From contig OZ246409.1 of NCBI GenBank assembly GCA_965231035.1, forward strand, positions 451,101 through 483,100: a DNA stretch of 32,000 bases, given 5' to 3'. A model generated the notes under the pieces. The model made no database searches. It saw nothing but the letters and a program-made list of their open reading frames with translations, and was not told the DNA's origin. A program made the position numbers and the translations under genes. Of the stretch, positions 2,493-31,987 are shown piece after piece; the stretch's first letter is position 1, and the number at the start of each line of letters is the position of its first letter. This DNA comes from an uncultured Muribaculaceae bacterium (GTDB lineage: Bacteria; Pseudomonadota; Alphaproteobacteria; Rs-D84).

Positions 2493-4328
2493 ATGAAAAT
2501 TAGAAATATCGCAATTATAGCGCACGTTGACCATGGCAAGACTACTCTGGTTGATAATATGTTAAAGCAAGCCGGGACTTTCCGTGAAAACGAACGCATC
2601 ATGGAACGCATGATGGACAGCGGCGATTTGGAACGTGAGCGCGGTATTACTATTTCTGCAAAGCCTACTTCTATTCAATGGCATGAATACAAAATCAATA
2701 TTGTTGATACCCCTGGACATGCAGACTTTGGTGGCGAAGTTGAACGTATTCTGTCAATGGTTGACGGTGTGGTATTACTGGTGGATTCTGCCGAAGGCCC
2801 ATTGCCACAAACTAAATTCGTACTGGGCAAAGCTTTAAAACTGGGATTGCGCCCTATTGTATGTATTAACAAAATTGACCGCAGTGACGCCCGTCCAGAT
2901 GAAGTCCTGTCAGAAACTTTTGATCTGTTTGATAAATTAGGCGCAAATGACAACCAACTAGATTTCCCTTATGTTTACGCAGTTGGACGTGATGGTTGGG
3001 CAATTCGAAATCTTAATGATGAACGCAAAGATTTAACACCTTTGTTCCAGTTAATAATTGACCATGTACCTTCACCTGATTGTGGTGGTACACGTTGTCA
3101 ATTGAATGCTCCTTTTAAAATGTTGGCAACTACACTTGAAGCTGATCCATACGTTGGAAGAATTCTGACCGGCAAAATTGAATCTGGAAATGTTCGGGTT
3201 GGACAACCTGTGAAGGCAATCCACATGAACGGTCAGGTTATTGAACAAGCAAAAATCACAAAAATTATCGAACATCGCGGAATTGAAAAAGTATCTTTGG
3301 ATACTGCCAGTGCTGGTGACATCGTGGTTATTGCAGGATTCTCCAAGGCAACAGTGGCTGATACATTGTGCGATCTGTCCGTAACAGATCCAATTCCAGC
3401 AATGCCAATTGATCCACCAACATTGACTATGACATTCTTTGTTAACACTTCCCCATTGGCTGGACGTTCGGGTGGTAAAAAATTAACTTCTCGTATGATC
3501 GGTGAAAGATTATTTCGTGAAGCTGAAACAAACATTGCATTAAAGGTTACCCAAAGTTCAAACAACGAGGCATTCGAGGTTTCAGGTCGCGGTGAATTAC
3601 AACTGGGAATTTTAATTGAAACAATGCGCCGTGAAGGTTTTGAGTTATCTGTATCACGCCCGCGTGTTGTTATGCAAACTGCTGCGGATGAAACAATGTT
3701 AGAACCAATCGAAGATGTTGTAATTGATGTTGATGATGAATTCAGTGGTGTTGTGATTGAAAAAATGACCAAGCGCAAGGCTACTATTACAGAAATGAAA
3801 CCATCGGGTATCGGTAAAACAAGAATTGTATTTTCAGCACCATCACGTGGATTAATTGGTTATCTTTCTGAATTCAGAACAGATACTCGTGGCACCGGAA
3901 TTATGAACCGTATATTTGCTGAATATTCACCATATCGTGGTCCTATTGAACAATACAGACCAGGTGTTTTAGTTTCTATGGAAAATGGGGTTGCTGCAAC
4001 ATATGCTTTGTTTAATTTACAACCACGCGGAACATTGTTTATCGGCCCACAAACCCAGGTATACAATGGAATGATTATTGGTGAACATACCAAAGAAAAT
4101 GACTTGGAAGTTAATCCAATCAAGGGTAAAGAACTGACAAATATGCGTTCGGTAACTGCTGATGAAAAACTGTTCTTGGCACCACCAAGAAAAATGTCAT
4201 TGGAAGAAGCATTGTCATATATTCAAGACGATGAATTAGTAGAAGTTACTCCAAATATAATCCGCCTGCGCAAAAAAGAATTAGACACTAATTCAAGAAA
4301 AAAGGCAAAGCGAAGCAATGAAAACTAA
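2493..4328 (+). CDS. typA: Translational GTPase TypA/BipA
   Basis: 611 aa. MKIRNIAIIAHVDHGKTTLVD G1 motif, DTPGHADFGGEVER G3, NKIDR G4, and the BipA-specific C-terminal region ending ...VEVTPNIIRLRKKELD. Confidence 0.95.
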   Translation: MKIRNIAIIAHVDHGKTTLVDNMLKQAGTFRENERIMERMMDSGDLERERGITISAKPTSIQWHEYKINIVDTPGHADFGGEVERILSMVDGVVLLVDSAEGPLPQTKFVLGKALKLGLRPIVCINKIDRSDARPDEVLSETFDLFDKLGANDNQLDFPYVYAVGRDGWAIRNLNDERKDLTPLFQLIIDHVPSPDCGGTRCQLNAPFKMLATTLEADPYVGRILTGKIESGNVRVGQPVKAIHMNGQVIEQAKITKIIEHRGIEKVSLDTASAGDIVVIAGFSKATVADTLCDLSVTDPIPAMPIDPPTLTMTFFVNTSPLAGRSGGKKLTSRMIGERLFREAETNIALKVTQSSNNEAFEVSGRGELQLGILIETMRREGFELSVSRPRVVMQTAADETMLEPIEDVVIDVDDEFSGVVIEKMTKRKATITEMKPSGIGKTRIVFSAPSRGLIGYLSEFRTDTRGTGIMNRIFAEYSPYRGPIEQYRPGVLVSMENGVAATYALFNLQPRGTLFIGPQTQVYNGMIIGEHTKENDLEVNPIKGKELTNMRSVTADEKLFLAPPRKMSLEEALSYIQDDELVEVTPNIIRLRKKELDTNSRKKAKRSNEN

Positions 4329-5193
4329 ACGTTTATTCATATTTGCTGCTTTTGATACAAAAAATTATATCCAGAAAATTTCTGGGGAGCCTGTTGTCGA
4401 TGATTCACTGATTATGTATGTTCGGGCATTGTCCGAGCTTGGTGACGTTGTTTTATATATGGATAACAATACGTCTGAATCAGAATTAAATAAATTAAAA
4501 CCATACACGCTGTATGCAGGCGCGTCCGCCCACGGCGAATACGATTTTGGCAGTTACAAGCGTGCATACTTATGGGCAAAATCTAATTTAAATTTATCTG
4601 ATTATGATTGGATTTATCTGGCAAATGATTCTATGTACGCCCCCTTGCACCCGTTAAGACCTGTTTTGGAAAACCTTGAATCCAGAAATAAAAATGCCAG
4701 TGGAATTGTGTTTAATGCACACAAAAGAAAACCACATTTGCAATCTTGGTTTTTAGGCATGTCGCCAAAAGTATTTTTATCCCATGATTTTGATTCTTTT
4801 ATTACCAGTGTTGAAAAACAAAAAGATAAAGGTTTGGTAACTTACCTTTATGAACAAGGCTTTACCAGAATGCTTAAAAAGAATAACTGGTCTTATTCTT
4901 ATTTATATTCTGTAACACATCATGCCGTGTACAACAGTATCAGAAAATTGTTTAAACGCGGTATGCCATTTATGAAAAAAACTGCATTTACAAGACACCT
5001 TGGATCACTGGGTGACCAGGTTTTGTACGTACTGGAACATATAGATCCAAAATCCAGGGACATTCTATTAAATGATGCTAGACGTGTTTATTGCGACAAA
5101 GATATTGATAAAATATTAACAAAAAATATTTTCAAAATTGGATATAGAAAAATTAAATACACATTGCGAAAATTATTTATTGAAGGTATATAA
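4318..5193 (+). CDS. Rhamnan-synthesis-F (RgpF)-like glycosyltransferase family protein
   Basis: 291 aa. HGEYDFGSYK...WIYLANDSMYAPL...HLQSWFLGM...YEQGFTRML follows the N-G-x-DFG-W / NDS-x-GP / HLQSYF pattern I associate with RgpF-like proteins. The start overlaps the typA stop by 11 nt. No HMM was run. Confidence 0.5.
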   Translation: MKTKRLFIFAAFDTKNYIQKISGEPVVDDSLIMYVRALSELGDVVLYMDNNTSESELNKLKPYTLYAGASAHGEYDFGSYKRAYLWAKSNLNLSDYDWIYLANDSMYAPLHPLRPVLENLESRNKNASGIVFNAHKRKPHLQSWFLGMSPKVFLSHDFDSFITSVEKQKDKGLVTYLYEQGFTRMLKKNNWSYSYLYSVTHHAVYNSIRKLFKRGMPFMKKTAFTRHLGSLGDQVLYVLEHIDPKSRDILLNDARRVYCDKDIDKILTKNIFKIGYRKIKYTLRKLFIEGI

Positions 5194-5194
5194 A

Positions 5195-6031
5195 ATGATA
5201 AAAAAAATAGCCGTTATAACCATGGCCAGAAATGATGCATTCTTTCTTGGACGTTGGATTGAATACTATGGGCGAGAACTGGGCAAAGAAAACCTGTATG
5301 TTTTTCTGGATGGGCTTGATCAGGCTGTACCTTTGAATGCTGGGAAAACTAATATCATAAAACTTGAACATCATGATTTATCCAGACTGGATTTTGACAA
5401 ACATAAATCATCAACAATATCAAAAATAGCACATGATTTATTTTCTAAGGGGTATGATATTGTTATTGGAACAGACAGCGATGAATTTTTAATTGTTGAC
5501 CCAAAAACAAAAAAATCACTTGTACAATATTTGTCCGAACAAAAAATCAAAACACCTTTGTCTGGCTTGGGAATGGATGTTGGTCAAGATTTGAACCAAG
5601 AAGACCAATTAGATCCAGAAAAACCTTTTCTGACACAACGTGGTTTTGCATTGTTGTCTACCAGATACACAAAACCGGTTGTTATTTCAAAACCTGCACG
5701 TTGGGGACGTGGATTTCATTGTGTAAAGGGGCATAATTTCAAAATTGATAAGAATTTATATCTGTTGCATTTTGGTAGTGTGGATTATGAAATGGTTCGT
5801 GCCAAGATTGGTGGCAATCGTGATTCTAATTGGAATAAACACGTTATGCGGCGTAGTGCTGGGGCAATATTTACTATTACTAAAAAGAAAAACCGATCCG
5901 AAAAAAATATTAATCTGGCCAGAACTTTGCAAACATTTTTACGCCCCATATACGCCTGGAACAAGCCTGCTATGTTTGGGCTGAAACTAGTTACAAAAAT
6001 CCCTGAAAGATTTAAAGGAACAAAAATATGA
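5195..6031 (+). CDS. Glycosyltransferase, GT2-like (Glyco_tranf_2_4-type)
   Basis: MIKKIAVITMARNDAFFLGRWIEYYGRELGKENLYVFLDGLDQ and GTDSDEFLIV (DxDE) resemble stand-alone GT2-like enzymes. I chose ATG 5195, one nt after the upstream TAA (5191-5193), rather than the track's 5138, which overlaps the preceding gene by 56 nt. Confidence 0.55.
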   Translation: MIKKIAVITMARNDAFFLGRWIEYYGRELGKENLYVFLDGLDQAVPLNAGKTNIIKLEHHDLSRLDFDKHKSSTISKIAHDLFSKGYDIVIGTDSDEFLIVDPKTKKSLVQYLSEQKIKTPLSGLGMDVGQDLNQEDQLDPEKPFLTQRGFALLSTRYTKPVVISKPARWGRGFHCVKGHNFKIDKNLYLLHFGSVDYEMVRAKIGGNRDSNWNKHVMRRSAGAIFTITKKKNRSEKNINLARTLQTFLRPIYAWNKPAMFGLKLVTKIPERFKGTKI

Positions 6032-6930
6032 CAATAAAAACAAAAATTTTCAGATTTTTTTATTTTGTATTAAGAATGATTGTTCGTATCCCTGAATTGT
6101 TCGGGGTTAAAACCAGAATGCATGAAAATACTATTGCCAGATGGCTGGTGCCAATGTATATCAAAAAAAATTTTGTGCCTTTGATAAAGGATCTGCCAGA
6201 ACAAAAACCTGTGCGTACAAACCCCGAAACAATTTGGCAATTCTGGACACCAAACAAGGTTTTTGGAACACCAGATGTTGTCAAGGCATGCATGAATACC
6301 GTTGAAAAACATCGTGGTGAAAAAAAACATATTATTTTGAACAACGATAATTTATCAGATTTTACAGATTTGCCAGGGTTTGTGTATGATAGGTTTAAAT
6401 CTGGAGATATGTGGCCTGCACATTTTACAGATATCGTCAGATTAGAAGCTTTGCATAAAAATGGTGGAATTTGGATGGACGCAACCAATTATATGACTGC
6501 ACCAATCCCAGAATATATTGATTCATTACCATTCTTTATTTTCCATGCAATTTCCGAAGGCAGTCCATATTCATTAATCCAAAACTGTTTTATCAAAGCA
6601 GACAAAGGTGCTTTTTTATTAGATGGTTGGCTGGCTTTGATTTTGGAATATTGGAAAAAAGAAAATAAAAAAATTGATTATTTCCAGCATCAATTAATGT
6701 TCAAAGCTCTTATCCAGGGCGATGCACGTGCTGCAAAGCTGTATTCAGAAATGCCCGTTATTGATCAAAAAGAAACGCACCAGTTATCGCTTGAAAAAAT
6801 GCTGGCACCATTTGATGAAAAACGCTGGGCAGAAATTTCTGCGGGCAGTTTCTTTCAAAAGCTACGTTATCAATTCAAAGAAATTCCATCTGGGTCATAT
6901 CTGGATGTTTTAACCAAGGCTGCACTATGA
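6028..6930 (+). CDS. Capsular-polysaccharide-synthesis-type glycosyltransferase (Caps_synth / Gly_transf_sug-like), paralog 1
   Basis: 300 aa. IWQFWTPN...VKACMNTVEKH...AHFTDIVRLEALHKNGGIWMDATNYM matches the WQ(Y/F)W ... SD(I/L)xRxxLLxxxGG(I/V)WxDAT signature. ATGA overlaps at both ends. Confidence 0.55.
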   Translation: MTIKTKIFRFFYFVLRMIVRIPELFGVKTRMHENTIARWLVPMYIKKNFVPLIKDLPEQKPVRTNPETIWQFWTPNKVFGTPDVVKACMNTVEKHRGEKKHIILNNDNLSDFTDLPGFVYDRFKSGDMWPAHFTDIVRLEALHKNGGIWMDATNYMTAPIPEYIDSLPFFIFHAISEGSPYSLIQNCFIKADKGAFLLDGWLALILEYWKKENKKIDYFQHQLMFKALIQGDARAAKLYSEMPVIDQKETHQLSLEKMLAPFDEKRWAEISAGSFFQKLRYQFKEIPSGSYLDVLTKAAL

Positions 6931-7832
6931 GATTATGGCGAATTTATGTTCAAACAAAAATATCTGCTTCGGTTGCATTATTGCAATGGCCGCGTCTTTT
7001 TGGAAAATGGACCAAGAAATACATTGGGGAAAATCCCCGAGGAAAAGTTTTAGTTCGTGAATTCGAAAAAAAATTCGTCCAAAAAATAAAAGACTTCAAT
7101 TTTGAGAAAACACCTGGAAAGTCTGCCGAAATCTTGTGGCAGTTTTGGACACCAAACAAGGTGTTAGGAACCCCAGATATTATCAAAGCATGCATAAATA
7201 CTGTCGAAAAGCACAAAGGCGATTTACAACATATTTTAGTTGATATAAAAACAATCCAAAACTATGCCGAATTACCAGGGTTTATTTATGACCTGTATAA
7301 TAGTGGAAAAATGAAACCTGCACATCTTGCTGATTTACTGCGTATAGAATTGCTACATAATCATGGTGGAATTTGGTTGGATGCAACTGGATATATGACT
7401 GCGGAGGTTCCAAAAAAGATTCGTGATTTGGATTTCTTTATGTTTCATGTTATGCGTAATGGTAAACCTGTTGTGCCATATATGCAAAATTGCTTTATTC
7501 GTGCCGATAAAAATTCACCACTGTTAAATGGCTGGCGCGAATTATGTTTGGAATATTGGAAAAATAATGATTTTGCTGTTGAATATTTCGTGCATCAAAT
7601 AATGTTTTATTCGATGGTAAAGAAAGATTCTGAAATGGCAAAATTGTATGCAAAAATGCCCCTGGTCGACCAAAAAGAAACTCATCACTACGCTGGTCGT
7701 ATGTCGGCAAAGTTTGACATGAATGAATTTGAAAAAATATCCCAAACAAGTTTCTTTCAGAAATTATTCTATAAACCCGAAGGCGTGGTAACTCCAGAAA
7801 GCAATATTGTAAAGCTGGCAGAAATTATTTAA
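6927..7832 (+). CDS. Capsular-polysaccharide-synthesis-type glycosyltransferase, paralog 2 (tandem duplicate)
   Basis: 301 aa, collinear with the preceding ORF along its whole length (ILWQFWTPNKVLGTPDIIKACINTVEKH...AHLADLLRIELLHNHGGIWLDATGYM...MPLVDQKETH). Confidence 0.55.
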   Translation: MRLWRIYVQTKISASVALLQWPRLFGKWTKKYIGENPRGKVLVREFEKKFVQKIKDFNFEKTPGKSAEILWQFWTPNKVLGTPDIIKACINTVEKHKGDLQHILVDIKTIQNYAELPGFIYDLYNSGKMKPAHLADLLRIELLHNHGGIWLDATGYMTAEVPKKIRDLDFFMFHVMRNGKPVVPYMQNCFIRADKNSPLLNGWRELCLEYWKNNDFAVEYFVHQIMFYSMVKKDSEMAKLYAKMPLVDQKETHHYAGRMSAKFDMNEFEKISQTSFFQKLFYKPEGVVTPESNIVKLAEII

Positions 7833-8625
7833 AAAATTTTCCAATTATCGGTGTTTTTCTAAGTTTTCTTGTACGCCAATGCCAAATCAATCCATTTTGC
7901 TTTGCAAACTCGCGGCGAATCTTTCGTCCAACTTTGCAGCTGTCTTTCATTTTTTTGCGACGAATTGGATCGCGGCTATTCAAAATAGAATCTTCATTGA
8001 ATTTATAGTGATATAAAACCTTTGGCACAGAAACTATGCGATTAGCAATCTTTACAGCACGCAAAACAAATTTTGATTCTTCTTGCGCTATCATTTCTGA
8101 AGAGAAAAATAATTTATTTTTTAATATAAAATCTTTTTTAAACAAATAACGCCAAATATATAAATCAACCAATACATTTGACCCTTTGATTTTATCTTTC
8201 ACACTGGTAAATATTTTGGATTCTTTGTATTCAAAACTGGGTGTGTATTTGTTTTCGCTTAAGAAACCACTTGCCGACATATCAGCCTTGGCATATTCAG
8301 AGGCAGATAACATAACTTCATAAAAATCAGGATCAATTAAATCATCAGAATCCATAAAATGAATATAATCCCCATTAGCCATTTTTATTCCAACATTCCT
8401 GGCCGCACCAGCACCAGCGTTTTTTTGGCTAAAAACTATAATATTTTTATACTTTTTTTGATATTTACGCAGTATTTCAATTGAATTATCTGGACTGCCA
8501 TCTTCGATGCATATTATTTCCAAATTTTTATAAGTTTGACCAAGAATACAATCCAAAGTGCGTGCCAAATACTTTTCCACTCTATATACTGGCATTATAA
8601 CTGAAATCAGCGGTGCTTTTTTCAT
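7825..8625 (-). CDS. Family 2 glycosyltransferase
   Basis: 266 aa. LISVIMPVYRVEKYLARTLDCILGQTYKNLEIICIEDGSPDNS and HFMDSDDLIDP are the classic GT2 N-terminal fold and DxD motifs. The ATG overlaps the recA stop (TAATG). Confidence 0.85.
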   Translation of the reverse strand: MKKAPLISVIMPVYRVEKYLARTLDCILGQTYKNLEIICIEDGSPDNSIEILRKYQKKYKNIIVFSQKNAGAGAARNVGIKMANGDYIHFMDSDDLIDPDFYEVMLSASEYAKADMSASGFLSENKYTPSFEYKESKIFTSVKDKIKGSNVLVDLYIWRYLFKKDFILKNKLFFSSEMIAQEESKFVLRAVKIANRIVSVPKVLYHYKFNEDSILNSRDPIRRKKMKDSCKVGRKIRREFAKQNGLIWHWRTRKLRKTPIIGKFFK

Positions 8626-26922: not shown

Positions 26923-28257
26923 TTATTCGCTTAAATAATTTCTTAACGCATCGCCAGACAATGGTGCAGCAGGTTCGTCAGAATTTGTTGTACTTGCTAT
27001 AGATATAACGCGTGGGCTCATAAACACAACTAATTCTGCAAATGGTGATATCAATGTTTCAGGTGTTGTAACAAATGAATGTGTTGGAATACCAATAATC
27101 ACATAATTGTCACCCAATGTGCTGGGAATTTTGAAAGATGATAATTCACCGACACTAGTACGCAAAACAATTTTTGCATCAATCTTTTTTGCACCAGCAT
27201 AATTTCCATATTTTCCGGATGCTCCAATCGTTAAATCTGTTTCCAGCCTATCTTCTTTACCACACTGTCCAATATCAAATCTGGACTGCCATCCGTTTGG
27301 AATCACAAAAGTTCCCTGGGATATTAAAACCACATTACCCTGTTGTGACAAGAAGGCCTGTAATGTTTTTGTGTTAATTTCTGGGCTGACCACCAATGTT
27401 CTTCCGACTACACCTGGGATTGACATTTTTACATTCTTATCCCCAAAGGCCGGTAATATATTCATCCAAACAATTGGATTGTCTGTGCGTGGGTATACAC
27501 GGTATACGTCAATATCCCATGCAATCATATATTTTTTTGACCCTACATCAGACACTATTTTTGAAACCTCGCGTTCTGTTTGATAATTTCCTTCAAATGA
27601 AACTGTTTTGTCTTCCCAATCAACTAACAGGTTTCGCATATCTGTACCATGCATAGCATCCAACAAAGCCATAATTATATTTTCATCTTTTGGCATTTTC
27701 ATCAGCCATTTTGCATGACTGGATAAATGAATTTCGTGCGCATCATCGTCATAGGAATAATAAGCCTTACCCATTTTCGTAATCAACTCTAAAGAATCAG
27801 CCAATGATCCGGCCTGAATTGATCCTGTTATTTGTTGTGGTAAACTTTCATCTGCAATGACTGCAATATCTGTACCATCCAACAGTTTATCCAAGGTTTG
27901 TTTTATAGTCAGTTTTTTGAATTCATAATTTGATACATTAAATGCAGGCAAATCGTCACCTGTATCTAGGCGAACTATTTCAATTTTTTCTTCGGGCACA
28001 ACAGATAAAACGTTCTGGTTATTCCAATCAACTTCACAGCGCTTTGGTAATTCAATAGAAAAACGACGTGCAGTATCAGTTGTCAGAGCCGCCTTTTTTG
28101 GGAAAATAGGAACCGAGTTTTCATCAATTACCATATTTTCAGTTACGTTAACTGTTTGGTATTGTTGCTGATTTTGCTTTTGGATACACCCAGTTAAGCC
28201 AATCAAAACAAAGAATGCTAAAAACAAATTTGAAATTTTTAAATTATTTTTTTTCAT
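26923..28257 (-). CDS. Outer-membrane lipoprotein of unknown function with a degenerate secretin-like layout (tentative)
   Basis: 444 aa. Signal peptide plus lipobox LTGC (Cys24). Residues ~115-178 resemble an STN/secretin-N module. Residues ~245-418 follow the order of secretin C-domain landmarks and end in AELVVFMSPRVI. The stop lies 12 nt before the lolC ATG. Motif-level call only. Confidence 0.35.
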   Translation of the reverse strand: MKKNNLKISNLFLAFFVLIGLTGCIQKQNQQQYQTVNVTENMVIDENSVPIFPKKAALTTDTARRFSIELPKRCEVDWNNQNVLSVVPEEKIEIVRLDTGDDLPAFNVSNYEFKKLTIKQTLDKLLDGTDIAVIADESLPQQITGSIQAGSLADSLELITKMGKAYYSYDDDAHEIHLSSHAKWLMKMPKDENIIMALLDAMHGTDMRNLLVDWEDKTVSFEGNYQTEREVSKIVSDVGSKKYMIAWDIDVYRVYPRTDNPIVWMNILPAFGDKNVKMSIPGVVGRTLVVSPEINTKTLQAFLSQQGNVVLISQGTFVIPNGWQSRFDIGQCGKEDRLETDLTIGASGKYGNYAGAKKIDAKIVLRTSVGELSSFKIPSTLGDNYVIIGIPTHSFVTTPETLISPFAELVVFMSPRVISIASTTNSDEPAAPLSGDALRNYLSE

Positions 28258-28270
28258 ATTTTTTGTATCC

Positions 28271-28618
28271 TTAGATGTTCATTATTTTTTCGAATTCTTC
28301 CAAAGTCATTTCATAAATAGGTTTTTGTGTCGGTGTTGTAAGACCTTTGACCTTTTCATATTGTTGGGCAAACTTATCTATGACTGCGGAAACTTCCGGA
28401 GTTACAGACACTTCTTTTTTTAACCTGTTTCCGTATTCTGTGATAAACTCTAAAACATCGGCCGCAAAGAATCTCCCGACATAATTTTCTATTGCAATTC
28501 CACCCTTTTGAACACATATAGCCGACATAACCGTGGTCAGCTGATTATAGAAATTTGCCATCTGTATAAAATTATCAACATTATTTGCCATGTACCCTAT
28601 CCTCTCTCTTTCATGCAT
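28271..28618 (-). CDS. Hypothetical small cytoplasmic protein, first gene of the lolCD-containing operon
   Basis: ORF of 115 codons. ATG 28591 (106 aa, MANNVDNF...) has a good AGGA SD 8 nt upstream and is the likelier start. No signal peptide. Predicted mostly helical by composition. No family recognised. Confidence 0.5.
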   Translation of the reverse strand: MHERERIGYMANNVDNFIQMANFYNQLTTVMSAICVQKGGIAIENYVGRFFAADVLEFITEYGNRLKKEVSVTPEVSAVIDKFAQQYEKVKGLTTPTQKPIYEMTLEEFEKIMNI

Positions 28619-28665: not shown

Positions 28666-29046
28666 ATGAGATTTAGATACTTACCTTTATTACTTATTTT
28701 GGCCGCTTGTGCATCTGCAAATACTGGAAGTATTGATGACGCAACTGTACTGAATTGGGAAAACGAAGCTGTAACCATTGAACAATTTATTCGCGACCAT
28801 AAAAATTGTCTGGGTGTAACTGCATCCGCTCACCAACCTCGCAGCAGAATCGCTAAGCTTTTGGCACCAAATCAGAGCGGACAAATGCCAGATTGGGACG
28901 GTTTATGGGTAACATTCCAGTCAAATGAATATTCTGATGTTGGCCAAAGGGTTTTGATGTCAATTCCTCCTAATTCCAGTTCTAAATCCGTTGGTTCATA
29001 CCGTAAATGTATGTTCAGACGCGGATATTTATTGCGCGCTAGTTAA
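28666..29046 (+). CDS. Small lipoprotein of unknown function
   Basis: 126 aa. Signal peptide MRFRYLPLLLILAAC with lipobox LAAC (Cys15), plus two further Cys (C48, C115). No family recognised. Confidence 0.55.
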   Translation: MRFRYLPLLLILAACASANTGSIDDATVLNWENEAVTIEQFIRDHKNCLGVTASAHQPRSRIAKLLAPNQSGQMPDWDGLWVTFQSNEYSDVGQRVLMSIPPNSSSKSVGSYRKCMFRRGYLLRAS

Positions 29047-29777: not shown

Positions 29778-29816
29778 TAGCTTGTAAACTTTTATCGCAA
29801 GACATGTGGTGATTTT

Positions 29817-31589
29817 ATGAATTTGTTTGATTCATCTTTTTTGTGTCTTGATATTGGCAGCAACACTGTTCGCGGCATTGCACATCGAATACGCTCTGGA
29901 AAAATAACCAAATCTGCAATTCACAGTGTCGAAAGCGATGATACAGTCTTTGCAATCAAAACTGTTATTGATGAAATGGAACGTCAATTAGGCGTACGTT
30001 TTGATTCTGCTTATATAACTGGAAATTTTGGAAACTCTAATTTTGAGATGATTGCAAAAAGTACCGTATGGAATGGTGATCATAAAATTACAGAATCAGA
30101 TGTAAGATATCAAATAAGTCAAATTACCCCAAATGCAGAATTTTATCCAATGCACATTGTACCGCTACGTTATGATACTTCGCATGCCAGAAATTTATTA
30201 ACCCCTATTGGACATACAGACAAACAATTAATTTCTATTTTTGGGGTAGTAAGTTATGAAAATGAAAGACTGAACACAATATTATCCCAGCTTCGCAGTG
30301 CACATATCCAAGTCGAAAATATGTTTGATCCATCTTTTATATTGGATACTGCATTGCGCGATTCAAAACAATCTGTTTTGTTTATGGATATGGGCGCAGA
30401 ATTCACCAGTATTTCAATCTGGACTGGACGTGGACCGGTATTTTTCGAAAAGATTCCCAAGGGTCAGGATTTTATAACAAAAACAATTGCCAGTGAATTA
30501 AATATAAAGATAAAAGATGCCGTTAAAATCAAACACCAGGTTGCCAGCGTAATTGCTAGTGAAATGGACAGATTTACCCCTGCTGATACTTTGTATGATT
30601 TTTCGCGTGCTGATTTGAATGAAATAATACTTCCGACATTATCAGATATTGTTGAAACAGTCAGCGAATCTTTGGAAACAGCTATTTCAAAATATAACCC
30701 TTGTAAAATATTCCTTTCTGGCGGTGGTGCATGTATCCAAGGAATCGAAGAAATGGTCACAGATACATTTGGAATAGAAACACAAAATATTGGATCAGAT
30801 GCGGTTATACGTGCACTTTCGGATTATGTTTGGAAACAAGAATCTGGACATGTAAAAGCTTTCTTGGACCGACATGAAAAATGGCAGAACACTTTTGCAA
30901 AGGTATTAAATAAATTCAAAAAGAATAAAAACAAAGGAACCAGATTTATTCCAATAATGCCCAGCACATTGGCGTTTGATATGAAAAGCAAAGAAACTTA
31001 TGAACTTTTCAAATCTGGCGGAATTTCAATGATTCATGTTGATATTATGGATGGTTTTTTTGTGGATCGTATTGCCGGTGGAATTGAAGAATTGAAAACC
31101 ATACGTGAAAACACTCACTCTCATCTGCATGTTCATTTGATGACGGAAAGCCCTGCTGCTTGGGCGGCTGCGGCTGCAAATGCAGGTGCAGATACAATAA
31201 TTGTATCAACAAATACTGCGGGTGTTCGTGCTGCACTTCGTCAAATAAAAGAAATGGGCAAAAGATCTGGAATTGCACTAAATCCGGAAAGTCCTGTTGA
31301 AATATTAAAACCAATATTAAAAGAAATTGATGAAGTTTTGATAATGTCTGTCAGACCTGGTGCAGGCGGACAAGAATTTAATGAAAATATTCTAAGAAAA
31401 ATCTCTGTTTTGGCAAACACCAGAAAACGGTTTGGATTAAAATTCAAAATATCCGTAGACGGTGGAATTACACCTGGTGCAGCTGAATTTTGCTGGCGCG
31501 CTGGTGCAGACTTTTTGGTCAGTGGAACATACCTATCTGAAAGTCATGATTTCCCGTTGGCAGTACAAAGTCTTTTACACAAAGAATAA
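29817..31589 (+). CDS. FtsA fused in frame to ribulose-phosphate 3-epimerase (Rpe)
   Basis: 590 aa uninterrupted. Residues 1-~345 are FtsA-like (FLCLDIGSNTVRGIA; LFMDMGAEFTSISIW...IPKGQDFITKTIA; KIFLSGGGACIQGIEEM). Residues ~352-367 form an amphipathic segment, KWQNTFAKVLNKFKK. Residues ~378-590 are Rpe (MIHVDIMDG, HVHLM, MSVRPGAGGQ, SVDGGI). Confidence 0.8.
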   Translation: MNLFDSSFLCLDIGSNTVRGIAHRIRSGKITKSAIHSVESDDTVFAIKTVIDEMERQLGVRFDSAYITGNFGNSNFEMIAKSTVWNGDHKITESDVRYQISQITPNAEFYPMHIVPLRYDTSHARNLLTPIGHTDKQLISIFGVVSYENERLNTILSQLRSAHIQVENMFDPSFILDTALRDSKQSVLFMDMGAEFTSISIWTGRGPVFFEKIPKGQDFITKTIASELNIKIKDAVKIKHQVASVIASEMDRFTPADTLYDFSRADLNEIILPTLSDIVETVSESLETAISKYNPCKIFLSGGGACIQGIEEMVTDTFGIETQNIGSDAVIRALSDYVWKQESGHVKAFLDRHEKWQNTFAKVLNKFKKNKNKGTRFIPIMPSTLAFDMKSKETYELFKSGGISMIHVDIMDGFFVDRIAGGIEELKTIRENTHSHLHVHLMTESPAAWAAAAANAGADTIIVSTNTAGVRAALRQIKEMGKRSGIALNPESPVEILKPILKEIDEVLIMSVRPGAGGQEFNENILRKISVLANTRKRFGLKFKISVDGGITPGAAEFCWRAGADFLVSGTYLSESHDFPLAVQSLLHKE

Positions 31590-31591
31590 AT

Positions 31592-31987
31592 CTATTTTAT
31601 TATAATTTTTCTGCCGTCACCAAATTCTTCTATGAAAATATGAATTGTGTTTTTTGGTAACTTATCTTCTGCTATTTCTGGCCATTCAATTAATGTAATA
31701 TCATTTTCAATTGCATACATCAGACCAATCTCTTCCAGTTCTGATGGATCATTTATTCGATATAAATCAAAGTGCGATATTCCATCGTAATTTTGCACCA
31801 GAGTAAATGTAGGACTGGGGACTATTGTATCAGACCCACGTAAAGTTTGAATTATTGTGCGTGCAATTTCAGATTTTCCCATACCAAGGTTTCCATGCAA
31901 TGCGACAGTTTGTGGCGCATGCAAGGTTTTTGCAAAATCATGTGCCCAATTTCTTGTTTCATCAATGTTTTTTAAAATCTTTTCCAT
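31592..31987 (-). CDS. tsaE: tRNA threonylcarbamoyladenosine biosynthesis protein TsaE
   Basis: 131 aa. VALHGNLGMGKSEIARTII P-loop, SPTFTLVQNY and HFDLYRI motifs typical of TsaE/YjeE. The stop lies 2 nt from the convergent ftsA-rpe stop. Confidence 0.85.
   Translation of the reverse strand: MEKILKNIDETRNWAHDFAKTLHAPQTVALHGNLGMGKSEIARTIIQTLRGSDTIVPSPTFTLVQNYDGISHFDLYRINDPSELEEIGLMYAIENDITLIEWPEIAEDKLPKNTIHIFIEEFGDGRKIIIK

Follow-up and report, generated by a model that had tools for sequence, protein, structure and literature searches.

An FtsA–ribulose-phosphate 3-epimerase fusion protein in the uncultured alphaproteobacterial order Rs-D84

Few bacterial division proteins have been studied as much as FtsA, whose free C-terminal membrane helix is considered central to its function. 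Subdomain 2B of canonical FtsA binds the FtsZ tail, and the SHS2 module is its FtsA-specific 1C insert. Metabolic control of division is known from other proteins, namely UgtP of B. subtilis, OpgH of E. coli, and GdhZ and KidO of Caulobacter, which are metabolic enzymes or homologues of such enzymes that regulate division; the last two show that Alphaproteobacteria use this logic. All of them are separate proteins that act reversibly on FtsZ. The stretch of DNA described here, a 32,000-nucleotide (nt) window of contig OZ246409.1 from an uncultured bacterium of the order Rs-D84, holds a different arrangement: in the gene ftsA::rpe, a divergent FtsA and a ribulose-phosphate 3-epimerase (Rpe) are encoded as one polypeptide, the enzyme being covalently joined to FtsA. 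What those regulators and the fusion would have in common is the fold of a central-metabolism enzyme physically tied to the early divisome.

A sequence-only reading of this DNA had proposed that one uninterrupted open reading frame (ORF) of 590 amino acids (aa) joins the two domains, and re-reading of the ORF bears this out (Table 1). In the encoded protein, Pfam detects PF00834 (Ribul_P_3_epim) at aa 380–573 (E=3e-46, 157.7 bits, cutoff 21.1) and PF14450 (FtsA) at aa 190–322 (E=1e-10). Separate alignment of the two halves to family profiles recovered FtsA (TIGR01174, below its cutoff) and Rpe (NF004076, above its cutoff), and the NCBIfam scores were alike whether the halves were scanned jointly or separately. 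Among 5.8 billion proteins from NCBI, JGI, ENA and Logan assemblies, at least 120 protein clusters have the same architecture, all of 588–596 aa, with a query coverage of 99–100% and an identity of 56–76%. The fusion was likewise found in related genomes, at least 576 species-level genomes encoding a relative in a scan of one genome per GTDB species. The best 80 of these genome matches, taken with 10-kb flanks, make up the locus set L001–L080; nearly all are full-length, the few partial ones lying at contig ends, and the complete genes extracted from them are uninterrupted (77 of 77; 587–597 aa), so that the stop codon sought between the halves in sister genomes occurs in none. The junction is free of insertions and deletions in a 19-sequence family alignment. 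The median ratio of nonsynonymous to synonymous substitution rates (dN/dS), for pairs at 75–97% identity, is 0.09 in the FtsA core, 0.21 in the linker and 0.06 in Rpe, and both halves are under strong purifying selection. The carrier records are metagenome-assembled genomes from gut samples of termites, ruminants, horses, birds and humans, and go by the names Candidatus Enterousia, 'Alphaproteobacteria bacterium' or 'Rickettsiales bacterium'.

Synteny, profile, PDB and structural comparisons agree in identifying the N-terminal half as the FtsA orthologue of Rs-D84. The reading had placed it directly after ftsQ; Pfam identifies that neighbour, and the synteny is conserved, ftsQ adjoining the fusion on its 5' side in every one of the 80 loci examined whose sequence extends to that point. 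The deepest fused member (P0140), only 33–37% identical to other fused proteins, sits in the order ftsI-ftsQ-fusion-rpmB, and the nearest stand-alone FtsAs (L087, L088) belong to classical murC-murB-ddl-ftsQ-ftsA-ftsZ clusters. Among PDB sequences, this half is matched best by FtsAs. An AlphaFold2 model of the fusion has a mean pLDDT (per-residue confidence) of 82.6 and a pTM (confidence in the overall arrangement) of 0.56, and the top 19 Foldseek matches are all FtsA structures (E ~1e-22 to 1e-18, TM 0.66–0.74 normalised to the target), the best for the N-terminal domain being 7q6i, 1e4g and 4a2a (TM 0.71–0.74), with PilM behind (0.53–0.64). The Pfam family SHS2_FTSA is matched by the fused relatives P0140 (44 bits) and P0139 (33 bits), and gave no match in the window protein at E<0.01. 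An assignment of this domain to PilM, MreB or another actin-like protein was considered and rejected on the ftsQ/ftsI synteny, the best profile and structure matches, and the WFK tail discussed below.

The resemblance to canonical FtsA (E. coli; Vibrio maritimus, 7Q6F/7Q6I; Thermotoga maritima, 1E4G/4A2A) extends to the actin-like FtsA-type fold, the phosphate-1 DIG, the adenosine GGG, the R-x-x-L-x-x-I-I-x-P stretch of subdomain 2B, the position directly after ftsQ, and an amphipathic, Trp/Phe-containing basic helix after the core. However, the fusion is only ~16% identical to these proteins, scores below the TIGR01174 cutoff and is ~40 residues shorter in this half; its helix is internal rather than C-terminal, a 213-residue enzyme domain is appended, and no ftsZ follows the gene. 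The FtsA part had been described as short, and its core does end near aa 340, as against ~373–385 in solved FtsAs; its N-terminal region also lacks ~16 residues after phosphate motif 1 and before the conserved block that follows. Its unusual phosphate-2 motif, DMGAEFTS in place of DxGGGTT (GAEFT against the canonical GGGT), is present as described and proves to be a family trait: the Enterousia-type proteins conserve D191 and G193, and P0140 retains a near-canonical DLGAGAT. Some deep fused branches lack the phosphate-1 and phosphate-2 Asp residues. In three other deep fused branches (P0141, P0144, P0147) a hydrophobic helix is kept and the Rpe tetrad is intact, with FtsA phosphate-1 and phosphate-2 motifs that are degenerate (YFG / HG..). 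The motif MDRFxPAD...DFSR is specific to the fusion family, lies in the region that corresponds to subdomain 2B and could be a partner-binding site.

Between the two domains lies KWQNTFAKVLNKFKK, followed by a basic NKNKG, both present as the reading had stated. Its proposal that an amphipathic helix here corresponds to the membrane-targeting helix of FtsA, now internal, finds support in the tails of stand-alone FtsAs, which end in ...IVAWFKDNI, ...LGAWFKEHF, ...IIAWFKDNL, ...IIAWFKDNLKPL and ...LSRWFKENFER (WFK[DE]x[FL]). At the homologous position P0140 has ...IKNWFEKHL (WVQIKNWFEKHL), which matches the ...AWFK[DE][NH][FL] tails; its sequence runs ...WDYRWVQIKNWFEKHL, then a basic tether of 12 residues, then Rpe strand 1. 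The Enterousia-type form of this segment has diverged to RW..R...KI...F[KR][KR].KK. Across the 77 orthologues hydrophobic residues are kept at Y349, I/L350, W/I356, I/L363, I/L366 and F367, and the hydrophobic moment of the family profile over aa 355–368 is 0.54, peaking at 100–110 degrees (p=0.01 against permuted column order). AlphaFold2 predicts one long helix at aa 343–366 and then a disordered polybasic tether at aa 368–377 (pLDDT <50), and the net charge of the linker (aa 341–377) is +7 in the window protein and +7 to +15 (mean +9.8) across the orthologues. Tail homology and helical periodicity of the family thus support the view that the linker derives from the C-terminal membrane-targeting helix of FtsA, and it would be expected to bind the membrane.

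The C-terminal third is matched by the NCBIfam Rpe subfamily NF004076 with 186–189 bits (cutoff 165) and misses the Rpe equivalog TIGR01163 (162–165 bits, cutoff 212.6). It aligns with S. pyogenes Rpe (2FLI) at E=5e-39 and Foldseek TM 0.84, and with Rpe structures in general at TM 0.80–0.85, so that the barrel, together with PF00834 and NF004076, is as complete as it had looked. The signatures MIHVDIMDG, HVHLM, MSVRPGAGGQ and VDGGI, listed in the reading, are all there. In comparison with canonical Rpe (S. pyogenes 2FLI, human 3OVP, Chlamydomonas 7B1W), the fusion shares the (beta/alpha)8 barrel at 32–37% identity, the His/Asp/His/Asp tetrad, the three cushioning methionines, and the DGG and SG[ST] phosphate site. 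The three-Met cushion is known from human RPE, and M411, M442 and M510 do not vary among the aligned Enterousia-type sequences. The SG[ST] site is kept at aa 569–571, with G570 nearly invariant, and the metal and catalytic residues are kept by most of the deeper fused lineages. That such glycine and serine sites bind phosphate is taken from the CrRPE1 structure (10.1101/2022.09.29.510120). From these conserved residues, the barrel in the window organism and in most lineages is probably an active epimerase of ribulose 5-phosphate and xylulose 5-phosphate, and the protein would therefore be bifunctional.

What sets the fusion apart from canonical Rpe, besides its lower TIGR01163 score, the FtsA at its N terminus and the loss of catalytic residues in two fused sub-lineages, is the build of loops B and C, which in canonical Rpe serve gating and the dimer interface. 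The reading had pointed to GFFVDR in place of the usual GxFVPN, and this is again a family trait: fused proteins have FVD[RK]IAGG instead of FVPN[IL]T[IF]G, and VPN occurs in no deep branch examined. Loop C is PGA[AG]GQ in Enterousia-type proteins, and its Phe is absent from almost every deep branch too. In CrRPE1, contacts of Val81/Pro82 with Pro182/Gly183/Phe184 close the active-site cleft, and the loop B residues Arg79, Thr85 and Gly87 form an essential dimer interface (10.1101/2022.09.29.510120). The fusion positions aligned with Pro82 and Phe184 are D and A, that aligned with Arg79 is F, and that aligned with Thr85 is A. Rpe also occurs as one domain of other fusions, such as PASTA-Rpe (P0330), Rpe-thiamin pyrophosphokinase (P0296) and xylose-isomerase-like TIM-Rpe (P0303), in which, unlike in ftsA::rpe, the partner is never FtsA and the canonical VPN and PGFGGQ loops are mostly kept. 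These other long Rpe-containing proteins were examined as possible FtsA-like fusions and set aside as unrelated. As a side observation on this set (P0330, P0296, P0303, P0295, P0301, P0299), P0330 carries two PASTA domains besides Rpe, and further members have unannotated extensions of 200–330 aa.

Among ~26 divergent fused representatives, two lineages have lost Rpe catalytic residues. In P0134/P0394 and their cluster members the changes are H407Y, D409T and D548C, the PGxxGQ loop has become SGAEIE, and the phosphate-1, phosphate-2 and GGG motifs of FtsA are lost too; in P0132 they are H407N, H440N and D548Y, and loop C is deleted. The proteins of both lineages keep their full length, the dead-barrel protein still matches Pfam Rpe (E ~1e-24 to 1e-25), and P0134/P0394 stand in the orthologous position lolD-lolC-p444-p107-lipoprotein-ftsQ-fusion-tsaE. 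These genomes (L084, L086) have 24–26% G+C, against 36.7% in the window. Between P0134 and P0394 the dead barrel is 80% identical at the amino-acid level with a dN/dS of 0.21, compared with 0.37 for the FtsA-like half of the same genes and 0.32 for ftsQ, values that come from one genome pair of ~25% G+C by the NG86 method, which is crude at such composition. Their relative ranking still suggests that the dead barrel is retained for a non-catalytic reason and, together with the family-wide remodelling of the loops, that the barrel has a second, structural role.

The age of the fusion was approached with the FtsA half alone as a phmmer query, in an exhaustive search over 1.84 billion representatives. 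Fused proteins (552–623 aa) persist down to 26–28% identity in this half, and stand-alone FtsAs of 400–440 aa appear only at ~79 bits and below; the distant long proteins tested carry a C-terminal PF00834 in 10 of 10 cases, and several match SHS2_FTSA. The fusion is therefore old, its origin preceding a very deep radiation. A precursor arrangement, with a stand-alone ftsA beside rpe, was not found in the nearest unfused lineages (P0293, P0294 and P0297, without a nearby rpe); in P0294 and P0297 ftsZ follows ftsA. As the reading had supposed, the fusion appears undescribed: full-text literature searches for FtsA, ribulose-phosphate 3-epimerase and fusion returned nothing, and a broader search nothing relevant. 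Both domain families are well known, and what is new is an FtsA architecture shared by the whole order, in which the membrane anchor has become internal and an enzyme barrel is appended. Enterousia has been placed in the GTDB order Rs-D84, with genomes mostly <1 Mb at ~90% coding density that lack amino-acid, nucleotide and lipid biosynthesis, have an incomplete glycolysis and are reported to carry the non-oxidative pentose-phosphate branch apart from transaldolase; the organisms depend on imported metabolites and have been proposed to live in dependence on a partner (PMC12306168). That study makes no mention of FtsA, FtsZ or the fusion. Public annotation names the fused proteins only 'ribulose-phosphate 3-epimerase', so that metabolic reconstructions of Rs-D84 genomes may count FtsA as absent and treat Rpe as an ordinary enzyme.

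The model proposed here holds that, in an ancestor of Rs-D84, a complete ftsA, including its C-terminal membrane-targeting helix, would have lost its stop codon and become joined in frame to a complete rpe, the architecture having been kept since. The N-terminal actin-like domain would perform the job of FtsA at the divisome. The internal amphipathic helix and the polybasic stretch would lie on the inner face of the cytoplasmic membrane, and the Rpe barrel would therefore be held at most ~10 residues from the membrane, beside FtsA. In most lineages, including the window organism, this barrel is probably an active epimerase, and it probably has a non-catalytic role in addition, such as oligomerising or scaffolding FtsA at the membrane. 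Taken as a whole, with the FtsA of the order, an internal membrane anchor, a membrane-held and mostly active epimerase and a structural role besides, this account is considered rather probable; membrane binding, enzymatic activity, the division role and scaffolding are putative functions within it. The first proposal, in which divisome or membrane would hold a pentose-phosphate enzyme in place, is plausible, and it is probably incomplete in that form, given that the dead but retained barrels suggest a non-enzymatic role too.

Several observations weigh against this account. On the side of FtsA, TIGR01174 covers aa 27–338 (profile positions 35–357 of 371) with only 78–80 bits against a cutoff of 175.85, the odd phosphate-2 GAEFT makes ATP handling by this half uncertain, and none of the 80 Rs-D84 loci (L001–L080) has an ftsZ match at 10 kb or less from ftsA::rpe. 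In the linker, the amphipathicity of individual sequences is only ~1 standard deviation above shuffles (mean z ~1), aa 355–368 rank 40th of 572 windows in the hydrophobicity profile of the family, and in four deep fused branches (P0139, P0148, P0152, P0179) a short linker, basic or rich in proline, has taken the place of the helix. The changes in loops B and C could instead point to an epimerase activity that is altered or lost family-wide, the inter-domain geometry is predicted without confidence at the pTM of 0.56, and the carriers are all uncultured.

Other explanations have been weighed alongside it. The fusion may be a functionally neutral by-product of gene compaction, in which FtsA and Rpe act independently and a flexible FtsA C terminus tolerates the barrel. 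Genomes of <1 Mb with ~90% coding density (PMC12306168) would favour such an outcome, Rpe is a promiscuous partner elsewhere (PASTA, thiamin pyrophosphokinase and sugar-isomerase-like TIM domains), and both halves retain the signatures of their own families. However, the two catalysis-less lineages have neither shed nor truncated the barrel, which in the one tested is under purifying selection; the length stays at 587–597 aa throughout 77 species; and the loop B and C changes are common to the fused proteins examined, whereas most other Rpe fusions are canonical there (VPN, PGFGGQ). Neutrality is thus regarded as unlikely. It has also been considered that the barrel acts as a metabolic sensor, binding pentose phosphates, whether or not it turns them over, and modulating FtsA so that division is gated by sugar-phosphate supply. 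The lineages with dead barrels show that this cannot be a universal role, since they have lost the ligand-binding residues and kept the domain, and the predicted contacts between the domains are unreliable. Sensing would nonetheless suit organisms that rely on imported metabolites; most lineages strictly conserve the residues that bind ligand and metal, the remodelling being in the gating and oligomer loops, the barrel would be tethered at most ~10 residues from the membrane helix beside FtsA, and an analogy may be drawn with UgtP, OpgH, GdhZ and KidO. On balance this idea is doubtful, and less credible than neutrality.

A further explanation supposes two products from the one ORF, by internal initiation near the start of the barrel or by proteolysis in the basic tether, which would release Rpe and a normal FtsA. 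The tether at aa 368–377 is predicted to be disordered and is rich in Lys and Arg, and the window has ATG at codon 381, as have 40 of 77 orthologues, with TTG in 16 more. In the other 21 of the 77 genes, though, this codon is TTA or CTG, so that a start there is not conserved; a product from M381 would miss part of beta-strand 1; and a stop and restart, which is easy to evolve, arose in none of the 77 complete orthologues. No Shine-Dalgarno-like motif precedes codon 381, a weak test given that 75 of 77 genes have none before the genuine start either. An internal start yielding free Rpe is accordingly unsupported, and the two-product explanation in general is very unlikely. That the ORF is an artefact, due to faulty sequencing or assembly or to a recent, pseudogene-like loss of the stop codon between ftsA and rpe, has in its favour only the prior that odd fusions in metagenome-derived sequence are sometimes errors. 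This explanation is rejected as virtually excluded, for the same indel-free junction recurs in hundreds of independent intact assemblies from all the gut habitats named above, 77 of 77 complete genes are intact and the linker itself is under purifying selection (dN/dS 0.21).

Returning to the account of a membrane-held barrel, it may be extended, in a reading that is itself unlikely, to a barrel that is a membrane-proximal divisome module, oligomerising or scaffolding FtsA and coupling it to pentose-phosphate availability wherever the active site is intact. In some lineages such a module may compensate for lost divisome parts, ftsZ being no longer linked to ftsA. If this is true, an entire order of ultra-reduced, partner-dependent bacteria has a covalent metabolic checkpoint on division. 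Even apart from that extension, an order with at least 576 species-level genomes has buried the FtsA helix inside a polypeptide, with a central-metabolism enzyme attached, and has kept this arrangement down to ~26% identity. If the proposed model is correct, the membrane anchor of FtsA can function from an internal position, a natural covalent coupling of metabolism to division exists where so far only separate moonlighting enzymes were known, and the lineages that retain a barrel with a dead site constitute a natural experiment separating catalytic from structural roles.

Table 1. Coordinates of the fusion gene, its parts and its neighbours; positions refer to the window except where a locus is named.
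Feature	Position	Strand	Remarks
ftsA::rpe fusion gene	29817..31589	+	ATG start, 590 codons plus stop, no internal stop
FtsA-like actin-fold core, aa 1-340	29817..30836	+	Divergent, shortened
Phosphate-1 motif LCLDIGSN, aa 9-16	29841..29864	+	D12 and G14 invariant in the 19-sequence alignment; aligns with DIGT/S of stand-alone FtsA
Atypical phosphate-2 motif DMGAEFTS, aa 191-198	30387..30410	+	Aligns with DIGAGTMD of Vibrio FtsA
Motif MDRFxPAD...(Y)xFSR, aa 244-266	30546..30614	+	Invariant, family-specific; region aligned with FtsA subdomain 2B; pLDDT <50 for 249-255
Adenosine-binding motif SGGGA, aa 301-305	30717..30731	+	G302 and G303 invariant, G304 nearly; aligns with LTGGGA of stand-alone FtsAs
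Inter-domain linker, aa 341-377 (37 residues)	30837..30947	+	Strongly basic, partly amphipathic
Amphipathic segment KWQNTFAKVLNKFK, aa 355-368	30879..30920	+	Derived from the membrane-targeting sequence of FtsA; internal in the fusion
Rpe (beta/alpha)8 barrel, aa 378-590	30948..31586	+	PF00834, NF004076, 2FLI, Foldseek
Metal/catalytic H407-x-D409	31035..31043	+	Aligns with H-x-D (VHIDIMDG) of S. pyogenes Rpe; invariant in the family alignment
Remodelled loop B MDGFFVDRIAGG	31047..31082	+	Canonical MDGxFVPN[IL]T[IF]G; F414, V416 and D417 invariant; pLDDT <50 for 413-419
Second metal histidine H440-L-M	31134..31142	+	Aligns with HLM of 2FLI; H440 and M442 invariant
Loop C MSVRPGAGGQ, aa 510-519	31344..31373	+	Canonical MSVNPGFGGQ; without the gating Phe; pLDDT <50 for 515-517
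Catalytic/metal D548 and phosphate-binding G549-G550	31458..31466	+	Invariant; aligns with VDGG of 2FLI
444-aa lipoprotein	26923..28257	-	No family match
115-aa protein	28271..28618	-	No family match; faint DivIVA-related match only, 17 bits
126-aa lipoprotein	28666..29046	+	No family match
ftsQ, 226 aa	29097..29777	+	Pfam FtsQ_DivIB_C E=7e-10 and POTRA_1; directly upstream of ftsA::rpe; remnant of the dcw (division and cell wall) cluster
tsaE	31592..31987	-	Pfam TsaE E=7e-32; convergent with ftsA::rpe, stop codons 2 nt apart
Dead-barrel fusion genes	L084/L085 10001-11770; L086 3001-4773		

The fusion gene stands in a block p444(-) p115(-) lipoprotein(+) ftsQ(+) ftsA::rpe(+) tsaE(-) that is kept in most loci; tsaE is a conserved downstream neighbour in most of them and marks the end of the ftsQ-ftsA::rpe unit. 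Within the 10-kb flanks, to which this search was confined, there is no second copy of ftsA or rpe and no copy of ftsZ, and the 32,000-nt window holds neither ftsZ nor a pentose-phosphate gene outside the fusion. The 444-, 115- and 126-aa proteins, which are syntenic with ftsQ-ftsA::rpe in most Rs-D84 loci, generally show 60–84% identity, as against 34–64% for FtsQ and 37–62% for the FtsA half; in the 25%-G+C genome pair the dN/dS is 0.06–0.10 for the two lipoproteins and 0.22 for the orthologue of the small protein. They may be lineage-specific envelope or division components. The absence of a Shine-Dalgarno-like motif before the genuine ftsA::rpe start in the 75 genes mentioned above (window 29801..29816 and its equivalents) suggests weak or no Shine-Dalgarno use at this gene, perhaps lineage-wide. 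The remainder of the window is the ordinary housekeeping of a small alphaproteobacterial genome (serS, typA, recA, secB, mltA, dciA, ruvABC, mnmE, lolCD, glycosyltransferases), and at 4318..8625 it includes five glycosyltransferase and capsule-synthesis genes (an RgpF-like gene, a GT2, two tandem Caps_synth paralogues, and a GT2 on the minus strand), a cluster that stands out for a genome <1 Mb.

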